A stretch of 64,000 bases of DNA from an uncultured virus (IMG/VR IMGVR_UViG_3300037418_000929) (IMGVR_UViG_3300037418_000929); one strand, 5' to 3'; shown: positions 1-63,536, numbered from the stretch's first letter. Translations and numbers: made by a program. The notes: a model not told the origin generated them from the sequence alone.

Positions 1-128
1 CGCCTCAACGTCTGCCCGAGTGTCGCCGCAGTAGATGCCTCCATTGAGCGCGATGCGGCCCGCTTCGAGCATTTCGCGCGTGACGGGCTCACGGGATTGC
101 TCTGAGGTTTGCTGGTCAGGCATGGTCA
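1..128 (+). repeat. Direct repeat, copy 1 (matches 43984..44111)
   Basis: Identical over 1-99, C/G mismatch at 100 versus 44083, identical over 101-128. Confidence 0.97.
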
Positions 129-308
129 GTCGTCCTCCACGCGGATAAGCGAGAGCCGCCAAGTGACATATTCGTTGTCGGGCACGTCAACGTAATCGGC
201 ATAAGCGGCTTCAATGCGCTGCCACGCTTCGGTAAGCGCCCCGAACGCACCGCGATTGAAGCGACATTCGGGCGTGATATTCTGAACGCTCGCGGGTATC
301 TCGCTCAT
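126..308 (-). CDS. Hypothetical phage protein
   Basis: MSEIPASV..., ATGA overlap with the upstream ORF. Confidence 0.6.
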   Translation of the reverse strand: MSEIPASVQNITPECRFNRGAFGALTEAWQRIEAAYADYVDVPDNEYVTWRLSLIRVEDD

Positions 309-475
309 GGCTTCGTTTTCTCCTGCTGTGCTCTGGCGCGGAGGTCCTCTAACCGTTGCGACAATGCGTCCGGTCCGTAGAAGCATGAGAGCGTGTCGCA
401 ACGCCAGTGCCTGTCATTCGGCGCCACGCCGACGAAGCACGGGCGCTTGTCGTATTTGCACAGCCGCTGTGTCAC
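305..475 (-). CDS. Small Cys-containing hypothetical protein (56 aa, not in ORF track)
   Basis: AGGAGAGG RBS, GTG start, MTQRLCKYDKRPC..., stop overlaps the next ATG. Confidence 0.55.
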   Translation of the reverse strand: MTQRLCKYDKRPCFVGVAPNDRHWRCDTLSCFYGPDALSQRLEDLRARAQQEKTKP

Positions 476-485
476 TATCCCTCTC

Positions 486-623
486 CTACCGGATGGCCGC
501 AGCTATTAGAGCCGCGCCGAGCAAGATCGCAGCAGCAGCGGCATGGCCTTGAGTCAGCTCGTAGATCGCGAAGGCTCCCCACACGATCACCATCTTGTGC
601 TTCGATGCGAGGCCAACCCACAC
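486..623 (-). CDS. Small membrane peptide (45 aa, not in ORF track)
   Basis: AGGAGAGG RBS, GTG start, hydrophobic MWVGLASKHKMVIVWGAFAIY...ILLGAALIAAAIR. Confidence 0.55.
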   Translation of the reverse strand: MWVGLASKHKMVIVWGAFAIYELTQGHAAAAAILLGAALIAAAIR

Positions 624-1180
624 TATCCCTCTCCTGAGCTACTGTTCTGAAGGTGGCTGGGGTTGGGCGATGCCTCTTGCGAGGCCCGCGCTGTCGCGGC
701 TTCGCCGTCCAGCCCCTGCGGGTCTGGCCCCTGCCGGGCTTCCATCGCTATCGCGGGGTGCTCTTCGAGCGCCTGCGCGGCCTTCCTAGCAATGAAATGC
801 GTGAGCCGAAGATATTCCGCCATTAAGTCGGCGAGAAAGGTGCGCTCTCGCTGAAATCGCTCCTCGGCGCGCGCCACATTGTTCGCATAGAGATCGATCA
901 GCGGGGCCATTGCCGAGATTACGCCCGAGATTTGGTCTATGCTCTTTGATTCCAGTTCTGCCCGACGGGTAACTTCCGCCTTGCGTTCGTCGGATAGCTC
1001 ATCCCAAGCTACCGGGCGCGTAATTTCCTCTCCGGCGGCATCAAGCTCACCAGTGAAGAAAGTGTCCGGATTGTTGTCATAGAACGCCTCGGCAAGATCG
1101 CGCGAAGGATCGAAGCCCGTAGGGGCAAGACGCGAAGCGGCTTGATCGCTTGCGACGAGAGCGCTTTTTTCGTCAGGCAT
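623..1180 (-). CDS. Hypothetical protein bracketed by structured elements B and A
   Basis: Start MPDEKS at 1180 with AAAGGA RBS, coupled to the HNH gene stop. Confidence 0.65.
   Translation of the reverse strand: MPDEKSALVASDQAASRLAPTGFDPSRDLAEAFYDNNPDTFFTGELDAAGEEITRPVAWDELSDERKAEVTRRAELESKSIDQISGVISAMAPLIDLYANNVARAEERFQRERTFLADLMAEYLRLTHFIARKAAQALEEHPAIAMEARQGPDPQGLDGEAATARASQEASPNPSHLQNSSSGEG
663..755 (-). repeat. Structured multi-hairpin element, copy A
   Basis: CGCGATAGCGATGGAAG CCC-GGCA-GGG G CCAG AC CC-GCA-GG GG CTGG A CGGC-GAA-GCCG CGACAGCGCGG GCCTC-GCAA-GAGGC ATCGCCCAA. Confidence 0.85.
1101..1164 (+). repeat. Structured multi-hairpin element, copy B
   Basis: CGCGAAGGATCGAAG CCC-GTA-GGG G CAAG AC GC-GAA-GC GG CTTG A TCGC-TT-GCGA CGAGAGCGC. 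Confidence 0.85.
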
Positions 1181-1643
1181 CAATCGTCCTTTCATTTCGC
1201 CTCTGTCTGTATTTTGCGTCCGACGCCTTTTGGCACTCGCGGCAGACGCGGTATTCGCCCCGCTGGCGTCGGCGTAGAATGAGGTTATCGCCCGAGAGCG
1301 GGTGGCCCCTCTTGCAGTGCGTCTGGTTAGCTCTAGGGTCGTTTCCAGAGGCCACAACGTCCATCCGGTTCTCTTTCGCGGTCCCCGGCCTGATGTGAAA
1401 TGCGTTAACGCAATCCCGCACGTTGCAGCTGTGCCGCGCCACTTTGCCGCGCGGCCAGTCTCGGGCATATGCGATTTCCCACGCGACTTGATGGGCGCGC
1501 CGCATCTTGCCGCCAGCCCAGAAGAGCCCGTATCCATCAGCATCTTTGCCGCCCATGAATCGGCGGCAGCCATTCGCATCCGGCGATGCGGTCAAAAGCC
1601 CCAAGCGTGTAGCTATTCCAGCGCGCCCAGAATCCTCTTCCAT
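1173..1643 (-). CDS. HNH endonuclease with C-terminal Zn-binding module
   Basis: GYG...RAHQVAW...VARHSCNVRDCVNAFHIRPGTAKEN, then THCKRGH...CREC. Confidence 0.85.
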   Translation of the reverse strand: MEEDSGRAGIATRLGLLTASPDANGCRRFMGGKDADGYGLFWAGGKMRRAHQVAWEIAYARDWPRGKVARHSCNVRDCVNAFHIRPGTAKENRMDVVASGNDPRANQTHCKRGHPLSGDNLILRRRQRGEYRVCRECQKASDAKYRQRRNERTIDA

Positions 1644-1644
1644 C

Positions 1645-2085
1645 TTACTCCCCTCCATCCTGCTGTGGGTTGAGGGCGGCGCGGTTCTCTCGCACGATAT
1701 CTTCGAGAGCGATGCGCCATACCGTGGCCCCAAGTTCTATGCCGTCCTGGATGCGCGTGTCGGCGAACGTGATTTGCTCGCGAATGTGAGCCTCCAGCTG
1801 TTCTATCCTTGACCTGGATACCCCATCGCCAAGCGCGGCTTTGGCAAAGTCCTGTATTCGCTTCACCGGATCATCGCCGTTTACCGATGACCAGCGAGCG
1901 TGAGCGATTTCGTCGAGGGTGGCCTTGAAGCGTTCTATCCTTGGTTTGAGGATGGAATAGGCGGCTTCGGCCTCGGGGATCAGCGCGACCCAACAGGGCG
2001 TTCCCGGCAACATGTGCTCGTCAGGGTCCGGCTCATTGACGGCGCAAATCGCCTTCGCGATTTCCTCGATCATCTGGTCACTCAT
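1645..2085 (-). CDS. Hypothetical phage protein
   Basis: Translationally coupled ORF in the leftward early gene run. Confidence 0.65.
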   Translation of the reverse strand: MSDQMIEEIAKAICAVNEPDPDEHMLPGTPCWVALIPEAEAAYSILKPRIERFKATLDEIAHARWSSVNGDDPVKRIQDFAKAALGDGVSRSRIEQLEAHIREQITFADTRIQDGIELGATVWRIALEDIVRENRAALNPQQDGGE

Positions 2086-2305
2086 TACCTGGACTCCGGG
2101 ATGTGCGATTGTCGGGATTGGGCGTCTCGTCAGCTTCGCTGCCGCCCGCGCTACCCTTGCTTTCGCACGGAGCCTGCTTCGCGTCTCCGCCCTTCGGGAG
2201 GGTATCGACTGACGCTGGAACGAACGCGAAGCTGCCGTCCGGAAAGCCCCAGCAGAAATGTTCGCGCTCGAACCTTCGGAACGCGCGGCGGCTGCGGCGG
2301 CTCAT
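2078..2305 (-). CDS. Hypothetical protein with element C at its 3' end
   Basis: MSRRSRRAF..., GAGGT RBS, ATGA overlap. Confidence 0.55.
   Translation of the reverse strand: MSRRSRRAFRRFEREHFCWGFPDGSFAFVPASVDTLPKGGDAKQAPCESKGSAGGSEADETPNPDNRTSRSPGNE
2118..2215 (-). repeat. Structured multi-hairpin element, copy C
   Basis: GCGTCAGTCGATACCCT CCC-GAA-GGG CGGAG AC GC-GAA-GC AGG CTCCG TGC-GAAA-GCA AGGGTAGCGCGG..CAGC-GAA-GCTG ACGAGACGCCCAA. Confidence 0.85.
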
Positions 2306-2790
2306 TGTGTGACCTCGCCGTTCTGAATTATGCCATGCCATTCGCAATGACCGTGAAGATTGACGGACGGCTCAAGGCTCACGGTTTCCCACTTCCCTAT
2401 CTGACCGGATATTTTCCACCGCTTGACACCGCTGCTATCGTTGCCGGCGTGGGGGCCGGTGCACGTTGCTATCGGAACACGGTGATGCGAACAGCGGGGA
2501 CACATGAGATCGAGCGTTCCGCAACATGGTCGCGAAGAGTGAGCGTAGTAACTCGGTGCAAGTTCAAAGATGTCGATCATGCTGCGATCCTTTTCCGGGT
2601 GTGTGCGAGAAGCTGTTGCCCAATGTGGCGCGTGTAGAGCGTCGAGCGCCTCTCGTTCCATCTCCGCAATCGGGATAGCCGGATCGTCGCGCGATTCCTC
2701 AAGGCCGATCATCAGGTGCGCATAGGCTGGCACCGCGAAAGGCCGGAAGCGAACCGTCGTTTTCACTTCGACGCACATGCTCAACTCCAT
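2302..2790 (-). CDS. Hypothetical protein; C-terminal part (internal start 2580) DUF6527-like Cys/His domain
   Basis: CPRC...W...SLEPSV...CEWHGIIQNGEV pattern. Confidence 0.5.
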   Translation of the reverse strand: MELSMCVEVKTTVRFRPFAVPAYAHLMIGLEESRDDPAIPIAEMEREALDALHAPHWATASRTHPEKDRSMIDIFELAPSYYAHSSRPCCGTLDLMCPRCSHHRVPIATCTGPHAGNDSSGVKRWKISGQIGKWETVSLEPSVNLHGHCEWHGIIQNGEVTQ

Positions 2791-2802
2791 CTCATCTGTT
2801 GG

Positions 2803-3261
2803 TCAGTCATGCCGATCCTTTCTGGGCGCATCTTCCGCATCAGACTCGGAGAGTTGCTCCCGAACCCACCGGCTAATCTTTAGCTGCTCCGCTTTGGCCG
2901 CCGCGAGATCGGCGGGTATGTCGCGAATTGGCATGTCAAATTGCTCGCGCAGGATGCGCTTTGCATTCTGGACGATTGCCTTGTCCGGGTTGTCTTCGAC
3001 CCACTTCTTAATGCGGGCCTTTTCCTTGTCGGCGTTCTCGGTTCTGTAGCGCCTCTTTTGCTCCCTAACCTTTTCGGGGTTCTTCTCGCGGTAGAGCTTG
3101 ACGCGTTCAATGTGCTCTTCGCGGTTGGAACGGTATTGGGCGCGCTTCTCCGCTCGTCGCTTCTCCAAGTTCTCCGCGTAGAGCTGCTTCTGATAATCGG
3201 GATTACGCGCCCGCCACTGACGCATATATTCCCTCTGCTCTTCGAGGCTCTTAAAGGTCAC
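2803..3261 (-). CDS. Hypothetical protein with repeated 'YR..NP' helical units
   Basis: WRARNPD, YRSNRE, YREKNPE, YRTENAD, WVEDNPD repeats, as in N-termini of phage endonucleases; no catalytic domain seen. Confidence 0.6.
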   Translation of the reverse strand: MTFKSLEEQREYMRQWRARNPDYQKQLYAENLEKRRAEKRAQYRSNREEHIERVKLYREKNPEKVREQKRRYRTENADKEKARIKKWVEDNPDKAIVQNAKRILREQFDMPIRDIPADLAAAKAEQLKISRWVREQLSESDAEDAPRKDRHD

Positions 3262-3602
3262 GCCGCCGCCTTAGCTTTGCAATAGGGAGACTTGCAGGAG
3301 GCGGCCTCGGCGGCAGTTACGGTTGCCTCGCATTGGTCGCACCAGCGGTGCTGGTCAGCGTCGGGAATGGACGCAACGTCGCCCGACGCGATCTGCATCG
3401 AGCCTGCAATGTGGGCGGTGTCGCCCGGCCATTTCTTCAGTTCACCCGCTGCTTTGACTTCGACGGCAAGGGAATTGTTGATTTGCGCGGCCACTTGGGC
3501 GACCGCCTTCGCCTCCTCGACATCAACGCTCCCATTACGGATGCTAACCAGGATGTCGGCGAGAAACCCCCGCAATTCTCCTGCCGTCTTAATTTTACTC
3601 AC
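3258..3602 (-). CDS. Hypothetical protein with C-terminal CxxC..C..C
   Basis: GGGAGG RBS, GTG start. Confidence 0.65.
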   Translation of the reverse strand: MSKIKTAGELRGFLADILVSIRNGSVDVEEAKAVAQVAAQINNSLAVEVKAAGELKKWPGDTAHIAGSMQIASGDVASIPDADQHRWCDQCEATVTAAEAASCKSPYCKAKAAA

Positions 3603-3741
3603 AACAGCCTCCCAAAATAGACAGGGGTTCCAAGTTCAAAATCAGGTTCACCGGGAATCTGTGCCATAACGTGCGCCTTCCGGTGCTATTCTGTTCCCAA
3701 GGGAAGCAACCCGGCGACACTCTACAGCGGCGAGGGGCAAC

Positions 3742-3789
3742 GCCTTCGGGAGGCAGGGGCCGGAGGTTCGAATCCTCTCTCCCCGACCA
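3742..3789 (+). other. attP: attP core: 3' half of tRNA-Pro(CGG)
   Basis: GCC-TTCGGGA-GGCAG anticodon arm, GGAGG-TTCGAAT-CCTCT T-arm, CTCCCCG-A-CCA end; no 5' half; ~250 bp downstream of the integrase. Confidence 0.9.
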
Positions 3790-3845
3790 GCTTTTTACTA
3801 GACAAATCCGCCTAGAAATGCAAGTGATTTGGACAGGGGCCGGAG

Positions 3846-4055
3846 TCACAAATCGAACCCCTGATGCTCCTCATGGAGCCGCCGAACCTTGTCGGGGAAC
3901 AGGTCGTGACCGGCTGACTGCCACAGCATTCCGGCCCATCCGGCCAGCGAAATGACCAACCAATTTTCAAAGTTGAAGCCCATCCAGCCAATCACAGCTA
4001 CGGTCAAAATGAAGCTGATGATCGCCTTCGTTAGGCCGCGAAGTTCAATGGGCAT
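3846..4055 (-). CDS. Small two-TM membrane protein between int and attP
   Basis: GGAGG RBS, two hydrophobic stretches. Confidence 0.55.
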   Translation of the reverse strand: MPIELRGLTKAIISFILTVAVIGWMGFNFENWLVISLAGWAGMLWQSAGHDLFPDKVRRLHEEHQGFDL

Positions 4056-5019
4056 GTTCCGGCCTCCTCTGAACCTTGGTCGCGACCCCGCGCAGATGCC
4101 CCGGCGAATAGCGGGCATAGTGGGTTGAAGTGGTTGCGGAATCGTCGTGGCCCATGAACTGCGCCAGCTCGTCCATCGATGCTCCGGCCTCGGCTGCCCA
4201 AACGGCTCCGGTGTGCCGGAGAGTATAGGGCGTCACCCGAACGCCGGAGCGCGCCGACGCTGCCTGAAAAGCCTTCTTGATGTTGCCGATGGGCTTGGCC
4301 CCGCGCTCGATCACATATTCGCTCTGGCGGCCCGCGTAGGCTTCGCGCAGCGCATCTAGCGCCTCGTCATTCAGGGCAACCACGGGACGGCGCTTCTTCG
4401 TCTGCCGCCGCCCCTTGGGGTTCAGGTCGATTTGCCCGCGCTCGAAGTCCACGCGGTCCCAGGTCAGCTCCAGGATCGCGGTTGGGCGGGCCATCGTGTA
4501 GAGCCCGAGCAATGCGTAGAGCCGTGCGTGGGGCGCTTTGACTTCGGCATACCAGCGCTCGAACTGCGCGTGCGTCAGGTGGCGGATTTGCCGCTCGGGG
4601 GCTGCGGGCCTCCAAACCTTCCTCGGCCTGTTCGCATGGCGCAGGGCTACTGAAAGCATGGACAGCTCGTAACGAACGGTGGCGGGTCCCACCTTGCGCG
4701 TCTCCGCGTATTTACGGCACATCGCGTCGTCGATCCGCTCGGGGTCCACGTTCTCCCAGAAGCTCTTCATCGCCTTCCACGCGTCCTTCTGGCGCGCCGT
4801 GGACGCAATCTCGGCAGCCTCGCGGGCGGCGATGTATTCAGTCACGATGCGGCCCACGGTCCACGGTTCATCCTTCAGCTCCGCGAAGACAGAGCGCGCT
4901 TCAGCCTCTGCGCTGGATCGGTCCTTCGCCGTGAGACGGATGCGAGTGCGCTTTCCTTCACCCTTGGGGATGACGATTGCGTATCCCTTTCCGAGGCGCT
5001 GGACGCTGTATTCTGGCAC
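4045..5019 (-). CDS. int: Tyrosine recombinase (integrase)
   Basis: TMARPTAILEL (R), TKK, YTLRH, MGH...HYARY catalytic motifs; adjacent tRNA-derived attP. Confidence 0.95.
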   Translation of the reverse strand: MPEYSVQRLGKGYAIVIPKGEGKRTRIRLTAKDRSSAEAEARSVFAELKDEPWTVGRIVTEYIAAREAAEIASTARQKDAWKAMKSFWENVDPERIDDAMCRKYAETRKVGPATVRYELSMLSVALRHANRPRKVWRPAAPERQIRHLTHAQFERWYAEVKAPHARLYALLGLYTMARPTAILELTWDRVDFERGQIDLNPKGRRQTKKRRPVVALNDEALDALREAYAGRQSEYVIERGAKPIGNIKKAFQAASARSGVRVTPYTLRHTGAVWAAEAGASMDELAQFMGHDDSATTSTHYARYSPGHLRGVATKVQRRPEHAH

Positions 5020-5165
5020 TCGAACCTCCGAACCTCTTCAGCCGGGATGCGTATTAGCGTGCCGAGCCGAAAGCAGCCAAGGTCGCCGTTGGCGATGGCC
5101 TTGCGGATCACGCCCTCGGAGCAGCCCCATTCGTCGGCCAGCGTAGAGACGGTGTAGGCTCTCAC
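4875..5165 (-). CDS. xis: Excisionase-like HTH protein overlapping int
   Basis: YTVSTLADEWGCSEGVIRKAIANGDLGCFRLGTLIRIP winged-HTH pattern directly upstream of int. Confidence 0.75.
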   Translation of the reverse strand: MRAYTVSTLADEWGCSEGVIRKAIANGDLGCFRLGTLIRIPAEEVRRFECQNTASSASERDTQSSSPRVKESALASVSRRRTDPAQRLKRALSSRS

Positions 5166-5276
5166 GCCGCCTTCGTCCGATCTTCGCGTCTGTCGTTTAT
5201 TCGAAGAGGCCATGCATCAGGATTGCGTCCTGTAGAGCTTTTTACCTGGGTGGGGTCGAGCATTTGGCGGTGGCCG

Positions 5277-5447
5277 TTACGCATTGGGCGTCTCCCCGTT
5301 GGGGACCGCGCTCTCGTGAACGGAGCCTGTCTGCGCAGTCTCCGCCCTTCGGGCTTCGATCGCTGACGCGATGCGACGCAATGCGTCGGCAATGGACATC
5401 AGAGCGAACATGATCGCGGTTCCGACTATTGCGAGGACAAGCGTCAT
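5277..5447 (-). CDS. Small membrane-anchored protein (56 aa) whose C-terminal half is element D (not in ORF track)
   Basis: MTLVLAIVGTAIMFALMSIADALRRIASAIEARRAETAQTGSVHESAVPNGETPNA; GGAG RBS, ATGA overlap. Confidence 0.65.
   Translation of the reverse strand: MTLVLAIVGTAIMFALMSIADALRRIASAIEARRAETAQTGSVHESAVPNGETPNA
5284..5370 (-). repeat. Structured multi-hairpin element, copy D
   Basis: CGCGTCAGCGATCGAAG CCC-GAA-GGG CGGAG AC TGCGCAG ACAGG CTCCG TTCA CGAGAGCGCGG TCCCC-AAC-GGGGA GACGCCCAA. Confidence 0.85.
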
Positions 5448-5728
5448 TGGCCGTCTCCACCCTTGAGTTGAACTTTATCTGCCGCAGCCAACATCTCATC
5501 AACGCCCGCAAAGCGCGTAACCTTTCCGCGCTCGCCTGCGCGAATTGCCTCGCGGGTGACAGCGTTCGGCGAACGGACGCAAAAGAGCAGATGCCCGTCA
5601 GCTAGCTTCAGGACGGTCTCAAGGTCCGCCGCGCGCACCGAAAGCTTGCTCTCACCCAATTCACATTCTCCAAGCTGCGTTTTTAGGGCGAGCAGCTCAT
5701 CCCACAGTCGGTCAATGGCCTCGGTCAT
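5444..5728 (-). CDS. Hypothetical protein
   Basis: Coupled ORF; C-terminal PNAVTREAIRAGERG..RF..VDEM resembles RelB/DinJ antitoxin C-termini (weak). Confidence 0.55.
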   Translation of the reverse strand: MTEAIDRLWDELLALKTQLGECELGESKLSVRAADLETVLKLADGHLLFCVRSPNAVTREAIRAGERGKVTRFAGVDEMLAAADKVQLKGGDGQ

Positions 5729-6108
5729 GCCGCCTCTCGAATATCTCTGAACTTCACGCCGTTACGCCCGCCCCATTCCATGATGAGGTCCACAAGGGCG
5801 GAGAACTGCGATACGCTCAACTCGCTCGTCTTTTGCCCGACAGGAAACACGCCGTTACCATCCAGCTCGGGCAGGAACCGCGTCTCGTTCCTGAGCGCGT
5901 GCATGAAGCGCAATTTCCATTCGTCGCGGGACCATTCGGAAGCGCCCTCGACCTGCGCGCGGATATCATCCACCAATGCGTGCAAAATGCGGTTCTGGTC
6001 GTCCGAGCGCTTCTTCTCGCGCACCTCGCATATGTAGCCGTGCGGGGCGCGATCGATCTCTTCCTTCGCCTTTGCGCGGCTGTAGGGTCCGCCGAGGTAG
6101 AACTTCAC
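5725..6108 (-). CDS. ninB: NinB/Orf-family recombination protein
   Basis: KRSDDQNRILHALVDDI...W..EWK..F...TSELSVSQFSALVDLI..WG..NGVKF. Confidence 0.85.
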   Translation of the reverse strand: MKFYLGGPYSRAKAKEEIDRAPHGYICEVREKKRSDDQNRILHALVDDIRAQVEGASEWSRDEWKLRFMHALRNETRFLPELDGNGVFPVGQKTSELSVSQFSALVDLIMEWGGRNGVKFRDIREAA

Positions 6109-6293
6109 GCCATATACTCCCAATGCCACATGGTTTCGGGCTGGCCGTCACCATTGGCGATCAGGACTTTCCAGCCCTTGCGCAGCACCGTTTCCAACCA
6201 GACGTAATCACCGTGGAGCGTGCGCACCGGACGCCAAGCAAACCACGAGTGCCACGCGGTCCTGTCGCGCTTCGAGGGCCGGCCGAATCTCAC
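6105..6293 (-). CDS. Hypothetical phage protein (WHxWFAWRPV type)
   Basis: WHSWFAWRPVRT...VWLETV. Confidence 0.6.
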   Translation of the reverse strand: MRFGRPSKRDRTAWHSWFAWRPVRTLHGDYVWLETVLRKGWKVLIANGDGQPETMWHWEYMA

Positions 6294-6619
6294 GCGGCCC
6301 TCCGCTTCCATGCGTCGGCGAAACCCATCGCCTCCGCGTAAAGGTCGATGCCCCATTCGTCGTAAAAGCCTTGGTGACCCAGCGCCTCCACGCTCATTTT
6401 CGGATCGCCCTGGATTTGGTGGTGCGCGAAGCACAGCGGCACGACCATCCAATGACTGCGGGTGAACCGCCCCGGCCTGTCCGCGTATCCGGTCACATGA
6501 TGCACCGTCGCCGCGCCCGCGCACACAAGGCAGCCATGCTCGGCGACCCACCCGTGGAAGCGTTCAAGCTCCACCGGCTTGTGCTTGCGTTTCGCGCGAA
6601 GGGCGGTGCGGCGGAGCAT
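6290..6619 (-). CDS. Ref/DUF968-like HNH nuclease
   Basis: GCLVC...HHV...VPLCFAHH within a recombination module. Confidence 0.7.
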   Translation of the reverse strand: MLRRTALRAKRKHKPVELERFHGWVAEHGCLVCAGAATVHHVTGYADRPGRFTRSHWMVVPLCFAHHQIQGDPKMSVEALGHQGFYDEWGIDLYAEAMGFADAWKRRAA

Positions 6620-6621
6620 GG

Positions 6622-6861
6622 CTAGAACGGCGCAGAGTCGTCCAGATCGACCGTCGCGGGCGCGCGCTGTGGGGCGCTGTCGGTCAGCCTCTCGCGCGGC
6701 TCAAACAGATTGGCGACACACCGCCCCTCCGCGTCGGGAAGCGGCAAAGCATCGAAGATGAGCTGGATGCCCTTCTCGCCCTCGAACGCCGTTCCAATGC
6801 GCGTCCAGAATGTCTTGTCCCGCCCCTTGCGCGGGGCCATGATGTCATATCGCTTAGCCAT
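6622..6861 (-). CDS. Small SSB-like protein with acidic tail
   Basis: TFWTRIGTAF core and C-terminal DLDDSAPF; follows erf. Confidence 0.6.
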   Translation of the reverse strand: MAKRYDIMAPRKGRDKTFWTRIGTAFEGEKGIQLIFDALPLPDAEGRCVANLFEPRERLTDSAPQRAPATVDLDDSAPF

Positions 6862-7567
6862 TGATTCCCTCCATTTCTTCTAGCTCACGGCGCTTGTTCG
6901 CCACGCGGATCGACAGTGGGACGAACTCCGCTGGCATGGCATCGCTGCCGAACCAGTATTGCGGGGCGTCCCTGCTGACCTGCTCGACGAACTCGGCGTA
7001 ATCCTTGGTCTCTTCCCATGCGATCAGCTCGCCCATGTCGCCCATTTTTTCGAGCGTCTTTGCGAACTCGTGGCAGGCGGTTTTGAGCGCCGTGGGTGAC
7101 TTGTAGGGACCGTCGAGCTGGACGCGCTTGGCGGGCGGCGTCTCGCCCGTGCTAGGGCGCGGGGCATGATCCGAACGCGGAAGAGACGCAGTTGCCGCGT
7201 TCCCATCGTCATCCTCTGTCGGCACTCCGAACGCGGTTTGCAGGGCATACCTGCGCGCGTAGGTCAGCGCCGATCCGAAGCCCTGCGCATCGCGCTTGTT
7301 CGCGGGTAGGTAGAGCAGGCCGAGGCTTTCCTTCTCGCCCGAGCAATGGTGAAGCACCGTCTCCACGCTCACCCCGTCCTCCGAGGGCTGGCAGCGCTGT
7401 GTGAAGAACAGGCCGTGGCGGATCAGCGGCGGCTTGATCGCCTCGATGATGCTGGTAAGGTCCGCATACTTGCTCTTGAAATGCGGGTTGGTCGCAGCCT
7501 TGGTCGCGCCCTCGATTTCAGCGAACGCCGCAGTCATCGCGGATGCGAGATTCTGGTGAACGATCAT
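6854..7567 (-). CDS. erf: ERF-family single-strand annealing protein
   Basis: NPHFKSKYADL...AQGFGSALTYARRYAL...EDDDGN. Confidence 0.93.
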   Translation of the reverse strand: MIVHQNLASAMTAAFAEIEGATKAATNPHFKSKYADLTSIIEAIKPPLIRHGLFFTQRCQPSEDGVSVETVLHHCSGEKESLGLLYLPANKRDAQGFGSALTYARRYALQTAFGVPTEDDDGNAATASLPRSDHAPRPSTGETPPAKRVQLDGPYKSPTALKTACHEFAKTLEKMGDMGELIAWEETKDYAEFVEQVSRDAPQYWFGSDAMPAEFVPLSIRVANKRRELEEMEGING

Positions 7568-7604
7568 CGGCGGATCATCCAACTGCTCGCCGAGAGTTTT
7601 GAGT

Positions 7605-7805
7605 TTAGTCGCCACGAATGTCGCCCGCCGCTTTTTCAGCCGCACGGGCCTCCCTTGAGGATGAGTTGATCTGTCGTGAAATCTCCATCACGCGGTCGGC
7701 GCGAGGCGTGGTTCGTGTTGCGGTTCCAGCCTCAAGCCAGTCGGCGCACAGCGCGGCGATGAAGAGATCGTGCTGGCGCATGGGATCGGTTGGAAAATCT
7801 CTCAC
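7605..7805 (-). CDS. Hypothetical protein
   Basis: GTGA overlap, GGAGG RBS. Confidence 0.5.
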   Translation of the reverse strand: MRDFPTDPMRQHDLFIAALCADWLEAGTATRTTPRADRVMEISRQINSSSREARAAEKAAGDIRGD

Positions 7806-8062
7806 GCCGCCCTCCGCTTGTTCAGCAGCGGGTCGCCGTTGACCTCGACCAGCGGAACCCACACGGTCGCCTCGCGACACGATGCGCACCATCCCTGATC
7901 GTCCACGGGATTGTCGCAGCACGGGCAGAGAACATCGGTCTCACCCTCGCCGTCGCAGTAGGGGCACAGCTCTTCCTCGAAATAGCCGGTGCCGATTACG
8001 CCCGTATCGTGCGCGACAGTGATCGAGCCGAAGCCCGAACATTCGGAGCAACGGTCTTTCAT
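7802..8062 (-). CDS. Zn-finger protein (DnaJ-like CxxCxGxG repeats)
   Basis: CSECSGFG, CPYCDGEG, CPCC, CASC. Confidence 0.65.
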   Translation of the reverse strand: MKDRCSECSGFGSITVAHDTGVIGTGYFEEELCPYCDGEGETDVLCPCCDNPVDDQGWCASCREATVWVPLVEVNGDPLLNKRRAA

Positions 8063-8304
8063 TGGTCGCCTCGGGCCTTGGCGAGGGCGTTGTCGATCAT
8101 GCCGTCGCGGAATTTCTCGCCGTGCCGCGCCGCCTCCGCTTCGAGAACGAGGCGTGCGTGAATTAGCGCCTCATAAAGCTCGGTCATTTCTGCGGCGGCT
8201 TCGCGCAGCTCGCCAACAACCATGCTATGCACAGCGTGGTCCGGCGCGCATTCGTGGACATGATTGGCAACCAGGCGGGCGAAGCGGGGGACGGGCGCGC
8301 TCAC
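8059..8304 (-). CDS. Hypothetical protein
   Basis: AAAEMTELYEAL...ALAKARG motif common in phage early proteins. Confidence 0.55.
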   Translation of the reverse strand: MSAPVPRFARLVANHVHECAPDHAVHSMVVGELREAAAEMTELYEALIHARLVLEAEAARHGEKFRDGMIDNALAKARGDQ

Positions 8305-8513
8305 AGCGCCCTCACGAGCTGCGCGGCGAAATAGACCAGTGCGAACAGCGCGACCGCGACACACGCGAAAGTCGATGGTCGCCGAATGGCCGAGACGCGA
8401 AGCAGGCTCGGGGCGCAAGCCCGACAAGCGCGGTGCTGCGAAGCAGCATTCGCCCTATCGAATATCCCCTCAAAATGCTCTCTAGGGATGGACTTGCTGA
8501 AGGGCGCGGTCAT
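8301..8513 (-). CDS. Small protein with C-terminal TM, containing element E
   Basis: GGAGGT RBS, MTAPFSKSIP...VAVALFALVYFAAQL. Confidence 0.55.
   Translation of the reverse strand: MTAPFSKSIPREHFEGIFDRANAASQHRACRACAPSLLRVSAIRRPSTFACVAVALFALVYFAAQLVRAL
8364..8456 (+). repeat. Structured multi-hairpin element, copy E
   Basis: CGCGAAAGTCGATGGTC GCC-GAAT-GGC CGAG AC GC-GAA-GC AGG CTCG GGGC-GCAA-GCCC GACAAGCGCGG TGCTGC-GAA-GCAGCA TTCGCCCT. Confidence 0.8.
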
Positions 8514-8655
8514 GCGGACACCTCCGCGATGCGCTTGCATCGTCTGCAGGTTACGAGGTCCAGCGCGAGAACGGCTTCGGCGTATGCGCCAATGCGCCCA
8601 CATGCGCTCGTGTCTGCACCCCAAGTGCGCTTCCAATGAAGAATCGTCGGGCGTG

Positions 8656-8856
8656 TCATGCGACCGACCGTTCGGCAGCATCGTTGACGAGCTGACAGAT
8701 GTGGCGGGCATTGGCTTCGCGCTGCTCAAGCGGGCCGAACTGCGACACAGACAGGATATGTTTGTCGTCGTCACCGTTGCGCGTGGCCCATATGGTGACG
8801 TTGCCCTGCTCCGTGACTTCGTAGTGCCACGGGGCTGGAGTGGGAGGCGTCCGCAT
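8656..8856 (-). CDS. Hypothetical protein (TPAPW...EANARHI type)
   Basis: PTPAPW and EANARHI motifs typical of phage early ORFs. Confidence 0.6.
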   Translation of the reverse strand: MRTPPTPAPWHYEVTEQGNVTIWATRNGDDDKHILSVSQFGPLEQREANARHICQLVNDAAERSVA

Positions 8857-9023
8857 TAACGCCCCCGAACCGGAACCGTGATTTCGCGAACGCGGAACGG
8901 CTCCATCCGATAGTGATTGCGGGAAGCTAGGAGCTCCTCGGCGCTCACGCGGCCTTCGCGGAGGTCTTCGAGTGTCGGATACTTAGTCATTTCGCTCCAT
9001 CTCCCCTCCTGGGTGTGGAGACA

Positions 9024-9068
9024 GTTGTGCCACCATTTCGGTGGGGCGTCAAGCCACCATTTTAGCGG
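9024..9068 (-). promoter_or_regulatory. PL with two 15-bp operators
   Basis: TTGACG (9052-9047)-17 bp-CACAAC; operators CCACCATTTCGGTGG (9030-9044) and CCACCATTTTAGCGG (9054-9068). Confidence 0.75.
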
Positions 9069-9121
9069 TCACGCAAAAATTTAATCCGGCGCTTTCCTAC
9101 AGGCGGGCGATTCGGGTATGA

Positions 9122-9194
9122 GAACAGAATGGCAACATTCCATTGCGTGCTGACATTAGCGCAAGTTAAGGAACGGGAAAGCTTCATTCCCGTT
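9122..9194 (+). promoter_or_regulatory. Imperfect alphaproteobacterial LexA box and sigma-EcfG-type promoter
   Basis: GAAC-N7-CAAC at 9122-9136; GGAAC-N16-CGTT at 9170-9194. Confidence 0.45.
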
Positions 9195-9248
9195 AAGCTG
9201 TTCGGTTGCTCGGTTACATGGGGTGGGGATGTCGAGGTGCACCAGCAA

Positions 9249-9527
9249 ATGGCGGCGCTGCGCAGTTATGCGGCGGAATACGGGAAGGCGGCGTGGCTAG
9301 AGCGCGCGGCGGCTAAGATTGCCGAGCGAGTCTGTGCGCTAGAAGATCAATTACGGGACGCACCACTTCAGGATCGCGCCGCGCTACAGGATGCCGTGCG
9401 AACGTCTCGGACAACGCTTGCATTACTAGAGAGAGGTCTGCGACAATCGCCGGTGACGGCTCGCCGCCTCGCAGCACAATCCGAGCAAGCTCCAGAGCAA
9501 TCTCGTCTCCGACTTCTGGAGTCATGA
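9249..9527 (+). CDS. Helical hypothetical protein antisense to the 3' half of cI (candidate antirepressor; alternative start 9129)
   Basis: GAGGTG RBS 9 nt upstream; open frame 9129-9527. Confidence 0.4.
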   Translation: MAALRSYAAEYGKAAWLERAAAKIAERVCALEDQLRDAPLQDRAALQDAVRTSRTTLALLERGLRQSPVTARRLAAQSEQAPEQSRLRLLES

Positions 9528-9750
9528 CGAACTGCTCGGTTTCGCCGGTAATCAGCTCGGACGGATCAACGCCAAGACCCTTGGCGATGCGCTCGACCCA
9601 TTCGATCGTGAGTCGCCGCTGACCCTTTTCCAGGCGTTCGATTTGCTGGCTTGATGTTGGCGGGGACATGCGCTGCCCGAGCTGCGTTCGGGACATTCCC
9701 TTGCCCTCGCGCACCCGCTGGATGTTCGCGCTGATTTGGTCCGCCAGCAT
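9313..9750 (-). CDS. cI: XRE-family HTH phage repressor, no S24 peptidase domain (start uncertain, 9750-9807)
   Basis: IQRVREGKGMSRTQLGQRM..TSSQQIERLEKGQRRLTIEWVERIAKGLGVDPSEL; divergent from cro. Confidence 0.85.
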   Translation of the reverse strand: MLADQISANIQRVREGKGMSRTQLGQRMSPPTSSQQIERLEKGQRRLTIEWVERIAKGLGVDPSELITGETEQFVMTPEVGDEIALELARIVLRGGEPSPAIVADLSLVMQALSETFARHPVARRDPEVVRPVIDLLAHRLARQS

Positions 9751-9800
9751 GACCGCCGAATGAAGGCAGTCGCGGTTTAGCGCCATACGCTTAATTGGTG

Positions 9801-9834
9801 TTGACATTAGCCTCTCACACCGCCAAAATGGTGG
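9801..9834 (+). promoter_or_regulatory. PR and operator OR
   Basis: TTGACA-17 bp-CAAAAT; CCGCCAAAATGGTGG (9820-9834) is the reverse complement of the OL consensus. Confidence 0.75.
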
Positions 9835-9838
9835 TGCG

Positions 9839-10033
9839 ATGAAGCTTTCCGAATACCTCGAACGCACGTCCACCTCACGCCACGAGTTCGCCAAAACCAT
9901 CGGCGTGAGTGGAGAGACGGTGCGCCGCTACATCGCTGGCACGCGCATCCCCGAGAAGGAGAAGATGGAGAAGATCGCGGAGGTCACCGGACTACAGGTC
10001 ACCGCCAACGACTTCTTTGGGATTGCAGCGTGA
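9839..10033 (+). CDS. cro: Cro-like HTH regulator
   Basis: MKLSEYL...FAKTIGVSGETVRRYIAGTRIP...VTANDF. Confidence 0.85.
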   Translation: MKLSEYLERTSTSRHEFAKTIGVSGETVRRYIAGTRIPEKEKMEKIAEVTGLQVTANDFFGIAA

Positions 10034-35339: not shown

Positions 35340-38300
35340 GTGAAGCCAATCCATATCCTGCGGACGCGGACGGCTCTTAGCACGGGCGTCGTTCCTACGA
35401 CCATCCTCTACGGGCGCACGGCAGGACATAGTTCTGGAACCACCTTCGATTACATCGTTGACAGCATCAACGGTGACGACACGACGGGCACCGGCTCTCT
35501 GGCAGCGCCGTTCAAAACCACGACCAAGGCGCACACGGTTGCCGTCGCGGCGGGCGGAAACAAGAAGATCGCGCTCAGGGGGCATCAGGGGCAAATCTAC
35601 ACCGCCGCGATCACCTGCACCACCAACGGGATCGAGTTCCACGGCTACGATACCGAACAGCCCAAGTGGCGCGGCTCCTATACCGTCACCGGGTTTGCAC
35701 AATGCACCGCCGGGGATGCTTCGGTCGTCGGCTCCAACTACGCGTCGATCTACAAAGCGACATTCGCGACCAGCAATCTTGCTTCTGGCGTTTCGTTCAA
35801 CAGCTTGCTTCCGCTTGAGAACGGCACTCCGCTCAACCTCGTCCAACTCCGGCACGACACGAGCGATCTGTATTTCCAGGACGCTATCGACGCCTTCTAT
35901 TCGTCAACGATCTATGGCGACAGCGTTACCATCGGGCTTGACGGATCGTCGCATCCCTCAACCGTCACCCATGCTGCCGTCCTCGGCAACGGAACGACGC
36001 CCTACACCGACGCGCAGCTCTCCAATTGCTCAATCATGCTCCACGCCTCTGCGAACAAGGCGCAGTTGGTCAAGGTCGCAACCAGTTCCAGCGGCGTTCT
36101 CACGCTCGCGGCGAACACGCTTACCAAGGAAACCGTTCGCGGCGATTGCTACGCGCTGCTGAACCTCCTTCCGGCGCTGTCTGTCGGCGAATACGGCGTG
36201 AAGGACAACGGCGACGGGACGTGGACGCTCTACATCTGGCCGAACAATCCAGCGAACCTCTCTGCGGGCGTACCGGTCGCATCTAAAAACACGATTCTCA
36301 AGTTCTCGCAGTCATCCAGCAACGCGGTTTCGAACATCGAGTTCGGGCACTGTGCGCACTCGGATACCACCGCCACGGTCGCCACTGTCGTTTTCGACCG
36401 CACCACAAATGGTTCTTTCAAGCAGAACACCGTCCAGTATTACAGCTACAAGGACTTCATCGGCAACGGCGGTGTGATCGTCGTCGGCGGGACCAGCAAT
36501 GTCATCCAATACAATGACATCAAGCAGGGCCAGAACGATTTCGGCGTGTTCTTCAACAACAGCAGCTATAGCCCGAGCGGCAATCGTTGCCTCAACAACT
36601 ACGCCTACCGGACCTCGCTGACCGCATGGCGGTTCTATGGTCAAGTCCTCATCGCGGCAGTCGATAATAAGGCTGAGAACTGCGGAACTGGCGGACACGC
36701 GAACAAGATCAATTTCTATCTCGGCTGTGACCAGGTTCTCTGCTGGCGCAACCTGTTTATCAATTGTGGCGGCTACATGACATGCCAGCAGTCCTCGCGG
36801 ATGCTGTTCGGCATGAACCTCGCCCCCGCCGATTCTGGAACAACCGATGCCCGCGCATTCGTTGACCAGACTGCGGATATTTCGCCCCCCGTCCCGACCA
36901 CCACCTCGAACAACGGGCTCATCAACAACGCTTTCCCGAAGCCTTCGGCCAATACTGGCGCGACGGGGCCGGACGCCCTCGTGGCGACCAATTCCAGCAC
37001 GCTCTACACAGTGAATTGGGAAATAGCGAACAACGCCGCGCACGGCATCCAATACAGTCATGTCGTCTCGACGCCGGACTACAATGTGCTGATGAGGGGC
37101 ACGGCCATCGGCGCGAACGATACCGTCGATACGAACTATGACGATCTGTTTTACGACTATACGAACGGCAACTGGAATACCGTTCCCGGCTCGATCCTGA
37201 CCACAAAGACGGGCAAGGACGAAAGCGCGTTTATTGCGACTTGGGAGACGTGGTTCCCCGACATCAATCTGCGCATGACGCTTAACGGCTACGCTTGGGA
37301 CCCGGCTGATCCCGGCGACGGGCCCTACGGCAAGCATTGGCCGGTCCAGGTCGACACCACCGCGCCGACGCTTTCGAGCCTCTCGGCGACGATCTCTGGG
37401 ACTTCCGCATCGGTCACGGTCACAACGAACGAGCGCGGCGGCACACTCTATTGGGTGCGTTATAACGGCGGCTCCGTTCCTTCTGGCGCGCAGGTTGTCG
37501 CCGGTCTGAACGGCGCTGGCGGCGCGGCGCTCTCGTCTGGTAATTTCGCGGTCTCCAATCCCGGCTCATTGGGGCCGTGGAGCGTCTCCGGAACAGCCGG
37601 CCAGACGGACACTCTCGCGGTCGTCCACAAGGATCGCAGCGGCAATATCTCCGCAGTCGTCACGACCCCGCTTGCCTTCGCGGCGTTCAGCGAAGTGTGG
37701 ACGAGCATGAACGGGACGAACTTCCCGCGTAAGTCGTCTGCGCTCACCGGATTCCAGACCACCACGCGCAAGATGATCGCGGCGATCACGCTCAGCCGGT
37801 CAGCGGCGCAGCTGGCGGTGGCGAGCAGCGGCGGCCTGATGTTTGCCAATGGCTCCTCGGACAGCGTTCCAACCTGGACATTGGGCGGGACGAGCAAGCT
37901 CCAGATTCTTCAAGAGAAGTCGGACAATACCGCGTTCGCCAATGTCATCGTGCCGCCCTCGACCAACATGGTCGCGGATACGCACTATCTCTTGCTGATC
38001 TGCTTTCAGTCGAACGGCACAAGCGCGACCCTCAACGGCACCATGTGGAACATTGCGACAGGCGTGCAGCTCGGAGGCACCGGCACGACGGGCGCGGTCT
38101 CTGGCGACATCAGCCTCGTGTTCAAGAACAATTACGACATCTTCAAGGGCGCTGCGACCTATGAGCGGTTCATGCTTTGGGATAATCCAAGCATCGCTTC
38201 GCCCGATGCGACAGATGCAACCCTGCGCGGCTATTTCATGTCCGGCGGCGCATTGCTCGATCCCGCCACGGCTGCGGCGAACATCGGCACTCCGTTGATT

Positions 38301-43344: not shown

Positions 43345-43691
43345 CCATTGACGCTAGCCCCGGCAAACAAGTCACCATCACATCCGAACTCTGGCTACAG
43401 ATATTCGCCAATCAGGGATCACTCGGTATTCAATTATCAGACAAGCAAGCAATGGAGCTGGCTTCAGGAATTATCGCGTCGGTTCGGAAGAGGAGGAAGG
43501 CCAGCTGAGGATCGTCCACTTCCGGCCCCACTTGAGGAACTCCCACGCGCGCCAGCCAAGCGGCACGTTCCTGTTCTCCCGCGCTGTGTTCGCGCGATCC
43601 GGCAAGATGCTCAGCCACGCCCACCTATCGCCCAAATCGAGCGACAGGTGGAATAGCCGACCTCCGTTTAGCACGATCATCTGATTACCCC

Positions 43692-43754
43692 CGATTGAAG
43701 CCCGAAGGGGCGAGACAACGAAGATTGGCTCGACGGCGAAGCCGCGAAAGCGGG
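43692..43754 (+). repeat. Structured multi-hairpin element, copy F
   Basis: CGATTGAAG CCC-GAA-GGG G CGAG AC AAC-GAA-GATT GG CTCG A CGGC-GAA-GCCG CGAAAGCGGG. Confidence 0.85.
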
Positions 43755-43764
43755 ATAAGGTCCA

Positions 43765-44106
43765 TCATCTTGAGCGATCGAGTAGGACGGTGATCGTGTC
43801 GAGCAGGGCGCGAATAACTTGTGACGACTCCTCGCATTCGAAGCGATTGCCTATCGCGGAGTCCAGCCAATAATGCATTCGATCGGCTGACTTATTCGCC
43901 CTCTCCACCAGCTCCTCGACATTGCTGAGGTCGGGGGTGGGGCGGGCGGCTTGCATGGCGGTGTAAATCGCGGCCACATGCTGCGCCTCAACGTCTGCCC
44001 GAGTGTCGCCGCAGTAGATGCCTCCATTGAGCGCGATGCGGCCCGCTTCGAGCATTTCGCGCGTGACGGGCTCACGGGATTGGTCTGAGGTTTGCTGGTC
44101 AGGCAT
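43765..44106 (-). CDS. Hypothetical protein spanning the repeat (5' part also at 1..123)
   Basis: MPDQQTS..EPVTREMLEAG...IYTAMQAARP. Confidence 0.65.
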   Translation of the reverse strand: MPDQQTSDQSREPVTREMLEAGRIALNGGIYCGDTRADVEAQHVAAIYTAMQAARPTPDLSNVEELVERANKSADRMHYWLDSAIGNRFECEESSQVIRALLDTITVLLDRSR

Positions 44107-44111
44107 GGTCA
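43984..44111 (+). repeat. Direct repeat, copy 2; phage 1/phage 2 junction
   Basis: Matches 1..128; base composition shifts immediately after it. Confidence 0.97.
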
Positions 44112-44216
44112 ATGTTCCCCGTTCTTCCCGTTTCTCGTTAGATACACAATCGCAAATACAGAGAAGATCAGCCACGCTATCGCAGCGATAACTGTTATCA
44201 CGTCTCTGTATTTCAT
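44109..44216 (-). CDS. Small TM peptide (35 aa)
   Basis: MKYRDVITVIAAIAWLIFSVFAIVYLTRNGKNGEH; its stop lies at the junction. Confidence 0.5.
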   Translation of the reverse strand: MKYRDVITVIAAIAWLIFSVFAIVYLTRNGKNGEH

Positions 44217-62845: not shown

Positions 62846-63510
62846 GTTTAACTCTTCCGCGCTTTCAGGAAATGGCTGAACTAGTAGATCAGTACGGTCG
62901 CCCGACTATGGCTTTCCACATCTGGTGGGACAACTTCGCTTCTGCTATTGAAAGCAGTTTCAACAATCTCGCTGACATCGTTACTGACATTCAGACTTTG
63001 CAGACTCAGCAAACTGCAATCCTAAGTGACTTGGCCGATCAGCTGGCTCAAATCGAAGCGGCTCAGGCAGCTGCCGACGCAGCTCAAACTACGGCAGATA
63101 CAGCTCAGAGTACCGCGAATACGGTTAACCGCAACGACTCCATCTCGACCTCGTGGACCTCGCCGGGAACGATTCTTTCGGCCTCTGACACGGGTTCGGC
63201 CGCTAGGATTACAGTCTCCGGTCACACACGGAAGTACACCGACGTTTCGTCCAAGTCCGTCACAGGCGGTAACATCAACGGCCTGAACTACTCGACAACC
63301 TATTACGTTTACTACGACGACACGAACCGTTCAGGTGGTTCTCAGGTTTATCACGCCACGACCAACCCGAACACGGCTCTTCCGGGGGCTGCTGCGGGAC
63401 GACACTACTGTGGTGTGATCACCACTCCGGCTGCCGGTGGCGGCTCGACCAGCGGTGGTGTTGACGCCCCGTCTGGCGGTGGAGGCGTTCAGGGAGGACA
63501 AATCCCATAA
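62842..63510 (+). CDS. Tail needle-like protein (gp26 position)
   Basis: LVDQYGRPT N-terminus, coiled coil, C-terminal knob. Confidence 0.65.
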   Translation: MSLTLPRFQEMAELVDQYGRPTMAFHIWWDNFASAIESSFNNLADIVTDIQTLQTQQTAILSDLADQLAQIEAAQAAADAAQTTADTAQSTANTVNRNDSISTSWTSPGTILSASDTGSAARITVSGHTRKYTDVSSKSVTGGNINGLNYSTTYYVYYDDTNRSGGSQVYHATTNPNTALPGAAAGRHYCGVITTPAAGGGSTSGGVDAPSGGGGVQGGQIP

Positions 63511-63536
63511 AGGTTGAAACCAGAAAAGACTGGGAC

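Follow-up and report, generated by a model that had tools for sequence, protein, structure and literature searches.

Known signals that act as folded single-stranded DNA (ssDNA), such as the Frpo/ssi sites, the sso sites and the minus-strand origins of phages, are a handful of unrelated and narrowly distributed cases. Complementary-strand origins of single-stranded replicons include G4 oric, the phiX174 primosome site and ssoA/ssoU of rolling-circle plasmids. Frpo, which with ssiD and ssi1-3 makes up class 1 of the ssDNA promoters of the plasmids F and ColIb-P9, is a hairpin of about 330 nt that rebuilds the -35 and -10 boxes (on these promoters see PMC9849209, PMC11541004, PMC12672017). Here we describe an element found six times in a 64,000-nucleotide stretch of DNA from an uncultured virus (IMG/VR IMGVR_UViG_3300037418_000929; the whole stretch is called the window below). 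The element resembles the class 1 promoters in being folded DNA, located on the transferred strand of the plasmid leading region upstream of early genes. It differs from them in its length of about 85 nt, in its branched shape with stems of 3-6 bp, in lying outside the ssiD fragment, and in occurring also in phages and microviruses that have no Frpo. With the complementary-strand origins it shares an orientation-specific fold in an intergenic gap of the strand that is to be copied first. The discrete fold and its presence in phages and microviruses appear to be undescribed; cis-signals of folded ssDNA are a known kind. On balance we lean towards the view that the six sites in the window belong to one widespread, unnamed family of mobile-DNA elements of 80-100 nt that act as a single folded strand of DNA.

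The element is about 80-100 nt long, the size of a tRNA, and a terminal stem closes its multi-hairpin fold. Read from the 5' end, stem P1 (about 5 bp), which joins both ends, is followed by P2 (3 bp), a T:A pair, a covarying N:N' pair and a tandem G.A. The middle consists of an invariant CCC-GNA-GGG hairpin and a long hairpin with conserved AGAC/GGCU, including an A.G mismatch. In the 3' part hairpins 3 and 4 are optional, and the element ends with the tail CGCCC. A covariance model of this fold (R1; 81 positions, 22 pairs) was built from a seed of 60 IMG/VR copies, all from other viral contigs and none from the window. When R1 was run over both strands of the entire window with filters off, only six sites were recovered, with scores from 85.3 to 32.7 bits (E-values 2.6e-16 to 6.9e-5). 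The best match outside these sites, ranked seventh, scored 17.3 bits (E 0.16), and the same search gave no match between 44 and 64 kb. The places and strands agree with those in the initial annotation of the window, which had been made from the sequence alone and is thus confirmed by a model whose seed was free of window copies.

Copy D (5285-5371, minus strand; 85.3 bits, E 2.6e-16) is the canonical one and lacks hairpin 3. It is intergenic and in the sense direction, between a stop at 5444 and the start of the excisionase gene (xis) at 5213, 72 nt upstream of that start. Copy A (664-756, minus strand; 55.3 bits) has both hairpins 3 and 4 and is read in sense as the C-terminal end of the open reading frame (ORF) 623-1180 on the minus strand (translation AIAMEARQGPDPQGLDGEAATARA). 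The N-terminal end of the same ORF contains copy B (1100-1176, plus strand; 42.3 bits), which has degenerate closing stems and lies antisense inside codons 2-27. Copy F (43685-43764, plus strand; 43.2 bits) is without hairpin 4 and most of P1, and occupies in antisense the gap between the stop of gene 43765-44106 (minus strand) and a start at 43680. The other two copies are diverged. Copy C (2119-2217, minus strand; 33.2 bits) forms in sense the C-terminal half of ORF 2078-2305 (minus strand), 34 nt before the next start, and copy E (8363-8456, plus strand; 32.7 bits) lies in antisense close to where the leftward early operon begins. Copy C has Watson-Crick ACCCU / AGGGU in place of the conserved G.A internal loop (GAAG / CGA), by which the helix is kept and the unpaired motif is lost; C may be a decayed or variant copy. 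The sites had been described as lying inside early genes. This holds for A and B (ORF 623-1180) and for C (ORF 2078-2305); D and F are intergenic, and E overlaps only a doubtful N-terminal extension of ORF 8059-8427.

Positions 1-10000 of the window agree at 100% identity with an IMG/VR virus record of 44,091 bp that has direct terminal repeats, and positions 43984-44118 repeat positions 1-135 at 97% identity. Given this terminal repeat of a 44-kb genome, all six copies fall into one leftward early operon that crosses the genome end. The alignment of the six copies spans about 90 nt, in which 16 columns are invariant and the mean column identity is 61%. Pairings among element copies account for I1-I3, the longest three of the 368 inverted-repeat pairs detected in the window, and for I6, with lengths of 52 nt for C/E, 40 nt for D/F, 35 nt for B/D and 26 nt for A/F. 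Four of ten predicted pairs show double changes among the six copies, in line with the covariation that had been noted for the central stem. The loops are mostly C-GNA-G or C-GNRA-G as the initial annotation had listed them, and its remarks that B and F are without the closing part and that hairpin 3 is reduced in D were also borne out, D lacking this hairpin.

Beyond the window, a 24-letter degenerate motif derived from copies B, D and F was found in at least 122 IMG/VR stretches. R1 matched 98 of the first 100 of these loci; L019 and L102, which gave no match, represent a single coding sequence. The motif also occurred in at least 122 stretches of a bacterial genome collection, and 76 of the 80 loci fetched from there gave an R1 match. 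According to the record titles the carriers are Alpha-, Beta- and Gammaproteobacteria, many of them Pseudomonas, and also Selenomonas, Microscillaceae and one metagenome-assembled genome of Saccharibacteria. The unpaired bases of the element are kept from the Alphaproteobacteria to Selenomonas and Microscillaceae. In an alignment of 60 sequences made by MAFFT and not fitted to the structure, 97.1% of the cells at paired positions were paired, as compared with 30-47% when the partners were slid. In the same sequences 231 cells were double changes against a shuffled mean of 63, and the observed score was reached by none of 500 shuffles. A further alignment, which was fitted to the model, comprised 31 copies from the window, F, the ET776 plasmid, microviruses, the Sphingopyxis phage VSN-002 and loci resembling integrative and conjugative elements (ICEs); three of its microvirus copies came from contigs already in the seed. 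Here 98.1% of the cells were paired and 19 of the 22 pairs had double changes.

The covariation is thus strong, and no Rfam family was matched. With Rfam 15 the window gave no match at the gathering score, and nothing was found on the element in ten loci at E up to 10. Over the F copies, a search at E up to 1 returned only sok and one weak unrelated match. A literature search with the 13-nt core as an exact string had no match. Neither the discrete fold nor its occurrence in phages and microviruses was found described in the searchable literature, which did not cover the original 1997 studies on CUP elements and ssDNA promoters. The earlier statement that the sites belong to no named family is supported by the missing Rfam match. 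The STAXI motif of Rfam is a structured motif near ssb and antirestriction genes and is suspected to act as DNA; its structure is a different one, and no match to it appeared in the Rfam searches. A CCCAT end is present in just 9 of 118 distinct copies, and the CGCCC-A tail was accordingly rejected as a general source of start codons for antisense ORFs. In four IMG/VR phages of lower GC content (L040, L035, L097 and L126) a conserved TTGACA-N5-TATAAT-like motif is located about 20 nt after the element on the same strand; an ordinary sigma-70 promoter would need a longer spacing.

In structured RNA, G:U is as a rule much better tolerated than A:C. In 101 distinct copies, among about 2000 paired cells, G:T and T:G together were counted 19 times and A:C and C:A 18 times. 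The Watson-Crick cells were C:G (860), G:C (663), T:A (246) and A:T (198), and G.A and A.G together amounted to 45. The loops of 93 elements were asymmetric between the strands: C-GNA-G was present 240 times against 27 for its complement (C-TNC-G), and C-GNRA-G 126 times against 16. In DNA, triloops of the d(GCGAAGC) type (C-GNA-G) have an unusual stability, and supercoiled DNA can extrude them. They are a feature that the element has in common with the d(GCGAAGC) mini-hairpins and with the promoters of the N4 virion RNA polymerase; each N4 promoter is one hairpin of 5-7 bp and is recognised by a phage enzyme, whereas the element has 4-6 helices and long-range closing stems. The sense strand was the more stable one in 86 of the 93 elements by DNA parameters and in 74 by RNA parameters. 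Since G:T is no commoner than A:C and the loops are strand-asymmetric, selection acts on one strand and follows DNA-like pairing rules.

On plasmids the element is frequent. A Raoultella copy used as query matched 2132 of 5426 complete E. coli genomes, and 4552 of the matching places were on plasmids, often adjoining psiB, versus 59 on chromosomes. With an E. coli plasmid copy as query, 4021 of 72,556 PLSDB plasmids were matched, 3112 of them typed conjugative. Plasmid F (NC_002483, 99,159 bp) contains exactly two copies, at 58090-58174 and 63478-63562, both on the minus strand and each preceding ssb or ygeA by about 470 nt. The plus strand, opposite both copies, encodes ssb, psiB and the ygeA/ygeB homologues. 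When F is transferred, the nicked strand enters with its 5' end first and the leading region in front. From this, and from the orientation of the leading-region genes for transcription off the transferred strand as given by Samuel et al. 2024 (PMC11541004), the minus strand of F is the transferred strand. The folded sequence, being on the transferred, gene-opposite strand, is therefore never present in the plasmid mRNAs. Both copies sit just beyond Frpo2 and Frpo1 as these are placed by Couturier et al. 2023 (PMC9849209), so that the element is the immediate neighbour of both Frpo copies inside a repeated block of roughly 500 bp. The ssiD fragment, as it appears in Supplementary Table 2 of Samuel et al. 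2024 (PMC11541004), stops 94 nt short of the element, and three low-certainty 'Frpo*' candidates from the same table reach into the element with their own far ends. The possibility that the element is itself a class 1 promoter of the Frpo/ssi type was rejected: boxes resembling TTGACA or TATAAT are missing from the consensus, and the element forms a block of its own, 94 nt away from the ssiD fragment.

The ET776 plasmid carries three copies, located upstream of antirestriction, DUF905/ParB/psiB and other operons and all opposite its genes. The gene-opposite position on the transferred strand upstream of leading-region genes was thus found for both copies of F and for all three of ET776. In R46 (IncN) three divergent copies (37.7, 23.7 and 20.8 bits) lie on one strand upstream of CUP-controlled genes including ccgAI and ccgD. 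The CUP elements of the IncN plasmids pKM101/R46 are likewise repeated blocks upstream of leading-region genes; PMC6289460 describes them as ArdK-binding promoter regions of double-stranded DNA, unlike the single-strand reading proposed for the element. In plasmids the element is located inside blocks which the literature files as Frpo repeats or, in IncN, as CUP regions. R1 found no copy in R64 (IncI1) or pCTX-M3, two weak hits in R388 and one marginal hit in R751. The R388 hits (IncW, NC_028464; 20077-20212 and 24083-24218) are 136-nt matches of about 25 bits on one strand, which suggests a longer, divergent subfamily. Copies are strong in F, divergent in R46 and weak in R388, all MOBF plasmids, and absent from R64 and pCTX-M3 (MOBP/MPF_I). 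A link of the element to plasmids without a primase of their own is a lead only, drawn from six plasmids and confounded with relaxase type.

In the bacterial genome collection the copies of multi-copy loci were co-oriented in 10 of 11 cases. Genes with a ParB_N domain, as identified by Pfam, were on the strand opposite the element in all eight cases, and PsiA/PsiB, ArdC, DUF932, DUF4326 and toxin-antitoxin genes were further Pfam-supported neighbours on the opposite strand. Some ICE or plasmid loci also have genes on the same strand, for example transposases and chromosomal flanks. Two bacterial genomes of about 7 Mb each (G002 and G003), for which 150 candidates per genome were scored, contained one and two copies. 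Near the element in five ICE- or plasmid-like loci (L249, L252, L263, L264 and L251) defence-type genes were seen, namely SAVED, Cap4 nuclease, Shedu SduA, Druantia DruA and SIR2. Three short 'viral' IMG/VR contigs (L148, L159 and L197) have DUF932 or ArdC beside the element, and may be fragments of plasmid leading regions rather than phages.

In the Microviridae the gene (coding) strand is the packaged strand. All five microviruses examined contain one copy each, on the gene strand and in non-coding intergenic DNA. In Gokushovirus WZ-2015a the copy (1601-1678) is between VP1 and VP2, after the major capsid gene, as G4 oric is in its genome. In Microviridae sp. MH572438 the copy (2703-2780) is in the sole large gap of the genome. 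The remaining three are IMG/VR contigs (L185, L194 and L142) with Phage_F capsid and Rep genes. The element is thus antisense to the genes in plasmids and sense in microviruses, and what is common to both is that it is on the strand that enters the cell single-stranded. These strand rules, together with the covariation confined to Watson-Crick pairs and the asymmetry of the loops, support the earlier proposal of a folded ssDNA signal rather than an mRNA structure or a peptide.

Tailed phages have their copies at gene boundaries, mostly in inverted pairs that enclose one small, variable ORF. In these phages, for which orientation was assessed in the window and in the annotated phage VSN-002, the element occurs in both directions: three sense and three antisense copies in the window, one sense and three antisense in VSN-002. 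Around the copies in viral loci a crude caller using ORFs and third-position GC content (GC3) found genes opposite on both sides in 37 cases, on the same strand on both sides in 33 and mixed in 48, with a flank missing in 5, which is roughly random. The mutual orientation of adjacent copies was different. In 34 pairs spaced by 700 nt or less, the 5' ends faced each other 25 times and the 3' ends 5 times, and four pairs were in tandem, whereas random orientation would give 25% 5'-facing, 25% 3'-facing and 50% tandem. One ORF was open across copy, core and second copy in 21 of the 25 facing pairs. In the window this arrangement is represented by the inverted pair A(-)/B(+) (664-1176), with 5' ends facing, a core of 343 nt and one ORF open throughout. 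The downstream copy of such cassettes is read in one constant frame (..IEARRAE..) and the N-terminal copy in two different frames. The cores are mutually unrelated; one of them (locus L150) is an HNH endonuclease.

A protein search with ORF 623-1180 returned one true orthologue (63% identity) and five further proteins which share with it only the element-coded N- and C-termini and have different cores. In the orthologue the C-terminal peptide resembles a reading of the element in the opposite orientation, an assessment made on the peptide alone. One 44.5-kb contig contains two copies with unrelated flanks whose sequences agree in every base for about 80 nt, starting exactly at the first base of P1 and stopping with the CGCCC tail; up to eight copies are present in 8 kb. 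The identical pair and the cassette layout fit cassette exchange or copying of the element. The option of a gene-shuffling site, raised in the initial annotation, gains support from the same flanks around unrelated cores. Close relatives for an empty-site comparison were sought: viral contigs gave only the phage itself, metagenome contigs gave nothing, and a strict B-type pattern occurred in none of the metagenome stretches. By tblastn against the other element-bearing loci only mosaic relatives were obtained, whose 24-77% identity is too distant for aligning junctions.

Several known mobile sequences were compared with the element. The PeSL cassettes of T4-type phages consist of a promoter and a simple stem-loop in direct orientation, Rickettsia palindromic elements are chromosomal and numerous, and attC sites have R/L core sites and are served by an integrase. 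They are like the element in bordering cassettes, in being translatable in frame at ORF ends and in providing portable homology for shuffling; the fold of the element is found in none of them. An integron attC site was rejected: the element ends are GCG.../...CGCCC without R''/R' core sites, and the integrase of the window was assigned to phrog_1, an ordinary phage integrase. Repetitive extragenic palindromes (REP/REPIN, moved by RAYT) were rejected on copy number, with only one and two copies in the two genomes of about 7 Mb and with the plasmid bias in E. coli (4552 places against 59). A miniature inverted-repeat transposable element (MITE) was rejected on the one pair examined (L026/L027), which has no duplication and whose bases outside both ends are unrelated.

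The element may well be a cis signal on exposed ssDNA that is recognised by a conserved host factor. Its likeliest role would be to start or time complementary-strand synthesis, for which it could act as a priming site or else as a barrier to the polymerase that guards a neighbouring single-strand promoter. Complementary-strand synthesis is favoured because it is the sole process common to the incoming plasmid strand and the microvirus strand; we put this specific role forward tentatively. According to a 2026 preprint (bioRxiv 10.64898/2026.01.09.698686), another single-strand promoter of F stalls complementary-strand synthesis and thereby prolongs early expression. The element, on the template just ahead of each Frpo, could stall it likewise. 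In the early operon of the window the copies may have multiplied and could serve as conserved joints for the exchange of one-gene cassettes. Conceivable single-stranded states in tailed phages are lagging-strand templates, rolling-circle tails, intermediates of Erf-type recombination and hairpins extruded from supercoiled DNA. It is possible, if doubtful as a whole, that one folded-DNA module marks the exposed strand (in plasmids the transferred strand, in microviruses the virion strand, and in temperate phages the early regions), is read by a conserved host enzyme to start or delay complementary-strand synthesis, and serves in addition as the inverted terminal repeat of cassettes.

Several observations weigh against this proposal. 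Tailed phages of this sort inject double-stranded DNA and carry the element in both orientations, so the moment at which a strand would be exposed is not evident. The strand rule of the microviruses comes from five genomes only, and the assignment of the transferred strand was taken from published knowledge of F. ssiD works without the element, and R64 has none despite the Frpo-type ssi sites that the literature gives for it; as R64 lacks the element and the F ssiD fragment excludes it, ssDNA promoter activity does not need it. A kinship with G4 oric was rejected, R1 reaching at best 5.8 bits on G4 and 5.7 bits over oric on the wrong strand. The predicted stability is modest, with folding z values from -1.2 to -2.8 against mononucleotide shuffles. 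The idea of a plain 'hyperstable' element was accordingly dropped, since nearest-neighbour energies give it no support, and a pure 'hyperstable roadblock' is likewise unsupported.

The alternative that survives best, although we regard it as unlikely, is a selfish non-coding mobile repeat: a MITE-like sequence, perhaps moved by way of ssDNA or by phage single-strand annealing proteins, that would insert at gene boundaries without benefit to the carrier and whose fold would be the target of the mobilising enzyme. The identical copy pair of about 80 nt from P1 to CGCCC with unrelated flanks (L026/L027; L150/L151) fits such a repeat, as do the phage copies which occur in both orientations, extend ORF ends and number up to eight in 8 kb, and the Erf genes present in several carriers. 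However, a sequence that inserts freely would not be expected to obey the strict strand rule seen in plasmids and microviruses (5/5), the copies per bacterial genome number only one or two, and neither a terminal inverted repeat nor a target duplication was seen at the identical pair. Conservation of the unpaired bases from Alphaproteobacteria to Selenomonas and Microscillaceae also speaks against it, and no mobilising gene is common to the carriers and the 4-6-kb microviruses.

Somewhat less probable again is an auxiliary module of single-strand promoters, which would position RNA polymerase or SSB, or insulate the promoter hairpin from read-through, and which phages would have borrowed with genes of the leading-region type. 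The F copies share a strand with Frpo1 and Frpo2, about 95 nt past ssiD and about 470 nt upstream of ygeA and ssb, the divergent R46 copies are upstream of the CUP-controlled ccgAI and ccgD, and both the 'Frpo*' candidates reaching into the element (Samuel 2024, PMC11541004) and the barrier activity reported for another F promoter in the 2026 preprint agree with this. It is contradicted by the lack of -35/-10-like boxes in the consensus, by ssiD being active and R64 doing without the element, by the microviruses, where the packaged non-template strand is unusable as a promoter, and by the phage copies, which have no Frpo-like hairpin beside them.

A structured RNA acting in transcripts, such as an element processing or stabilising mRNA or a small ribozyme, is improbable. 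The conserved unpaired bases, the GNRA loops, the tandem G.A beside the junction and the more stable sense strand by RNA parameters (74/93) would suit an RNA, as would the sense direction of the microvirus copies and of half of the phage copies. But all plasmid and ICE copies examined run antisense to the genes beside them, G:U does not exceed A:C in frequency, antisense phage copies can score high (77.6 bits in VSN-002), and Rfam gave no match. A conserved peptide module (N-terminal ..GFDPSR.., C-terminal ..IEARRAE..), suggested by the constant frame in cassettes and by the ends common to proteins P0003-P0006 and P0012, is scarcely credible, as compensatory changes retain pairing yet change codons, the N-terminal copy is read in two frames, and the plasmid and microvirus copies and window copies D and F are non-coding.

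The early operon of the window contains, besides the copies, an HNH endonuclease gene adjoining copy B (1173-1643, minus strand; phrog_826, E 2.5e-29), an integrase (4045-5019; phrog_1), the excisionase xis (4875-5213), NinB (5725-6129) and a gene for an Erf-type single-strand annealing protein (6854-7645, minus strand; phrog_2324, E 3.9e-41), all assigned with PHROGs. The stop codon of the HNH gene overlaps the start of ORF 623-1180 (ATGCCTGA, 1173-1180) right at the 3' end of copy B, which abuts both. The rightward arm encodes methyltransferases, RusA and an O-like initiator (PHROGs). No primase or helicase was found among the 32 window ORFs scanned with PHROGs, and no tRNA was found in the window by ARAGORN. 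Just downstream of the integrase gene, 48 nt (3742-3789) are 100% identical to an unrelated human-gut phage contig (MT836224) and may be the core of the attachment site. The window is composite: after the terminal repeat of the 44-kb phage, about 20 kb (to 64000) contain diverged copies of its tail-region genes, for example 35616-37276 versus 56078-57729 with 71-77% identity. A protein identical to the product of ORF 623-1180 is on record on a contig of 92,805 nt. This suggests tandem related prophages or a larger host contig.

Taken together, the element is probably a widespread signal that works as ssDNA. Its covariation is as strong as that of a good RNA family, and one module connects microviruses and the temperate phages of Alpha-, Beta- and Gammaproteobacteria to plasmid F and to clinical IncF-type plasmids in their thousands. 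Should the conversion of incoming single strands be under its control, the element would bear on the timing of early anti-defence gene expression by plasmids, and would provide a cheap sequence marker for the strand and the region of a mobile element that are exposed first. The inverted pairs around variable small ORFs offer a concrete, testable mechanism for the mosaic turnover of phage early genes. If this interpretation is true, the element would be a natural structured DNA with conserved tertiary motifs, like a structured RNA family but made of DNA.

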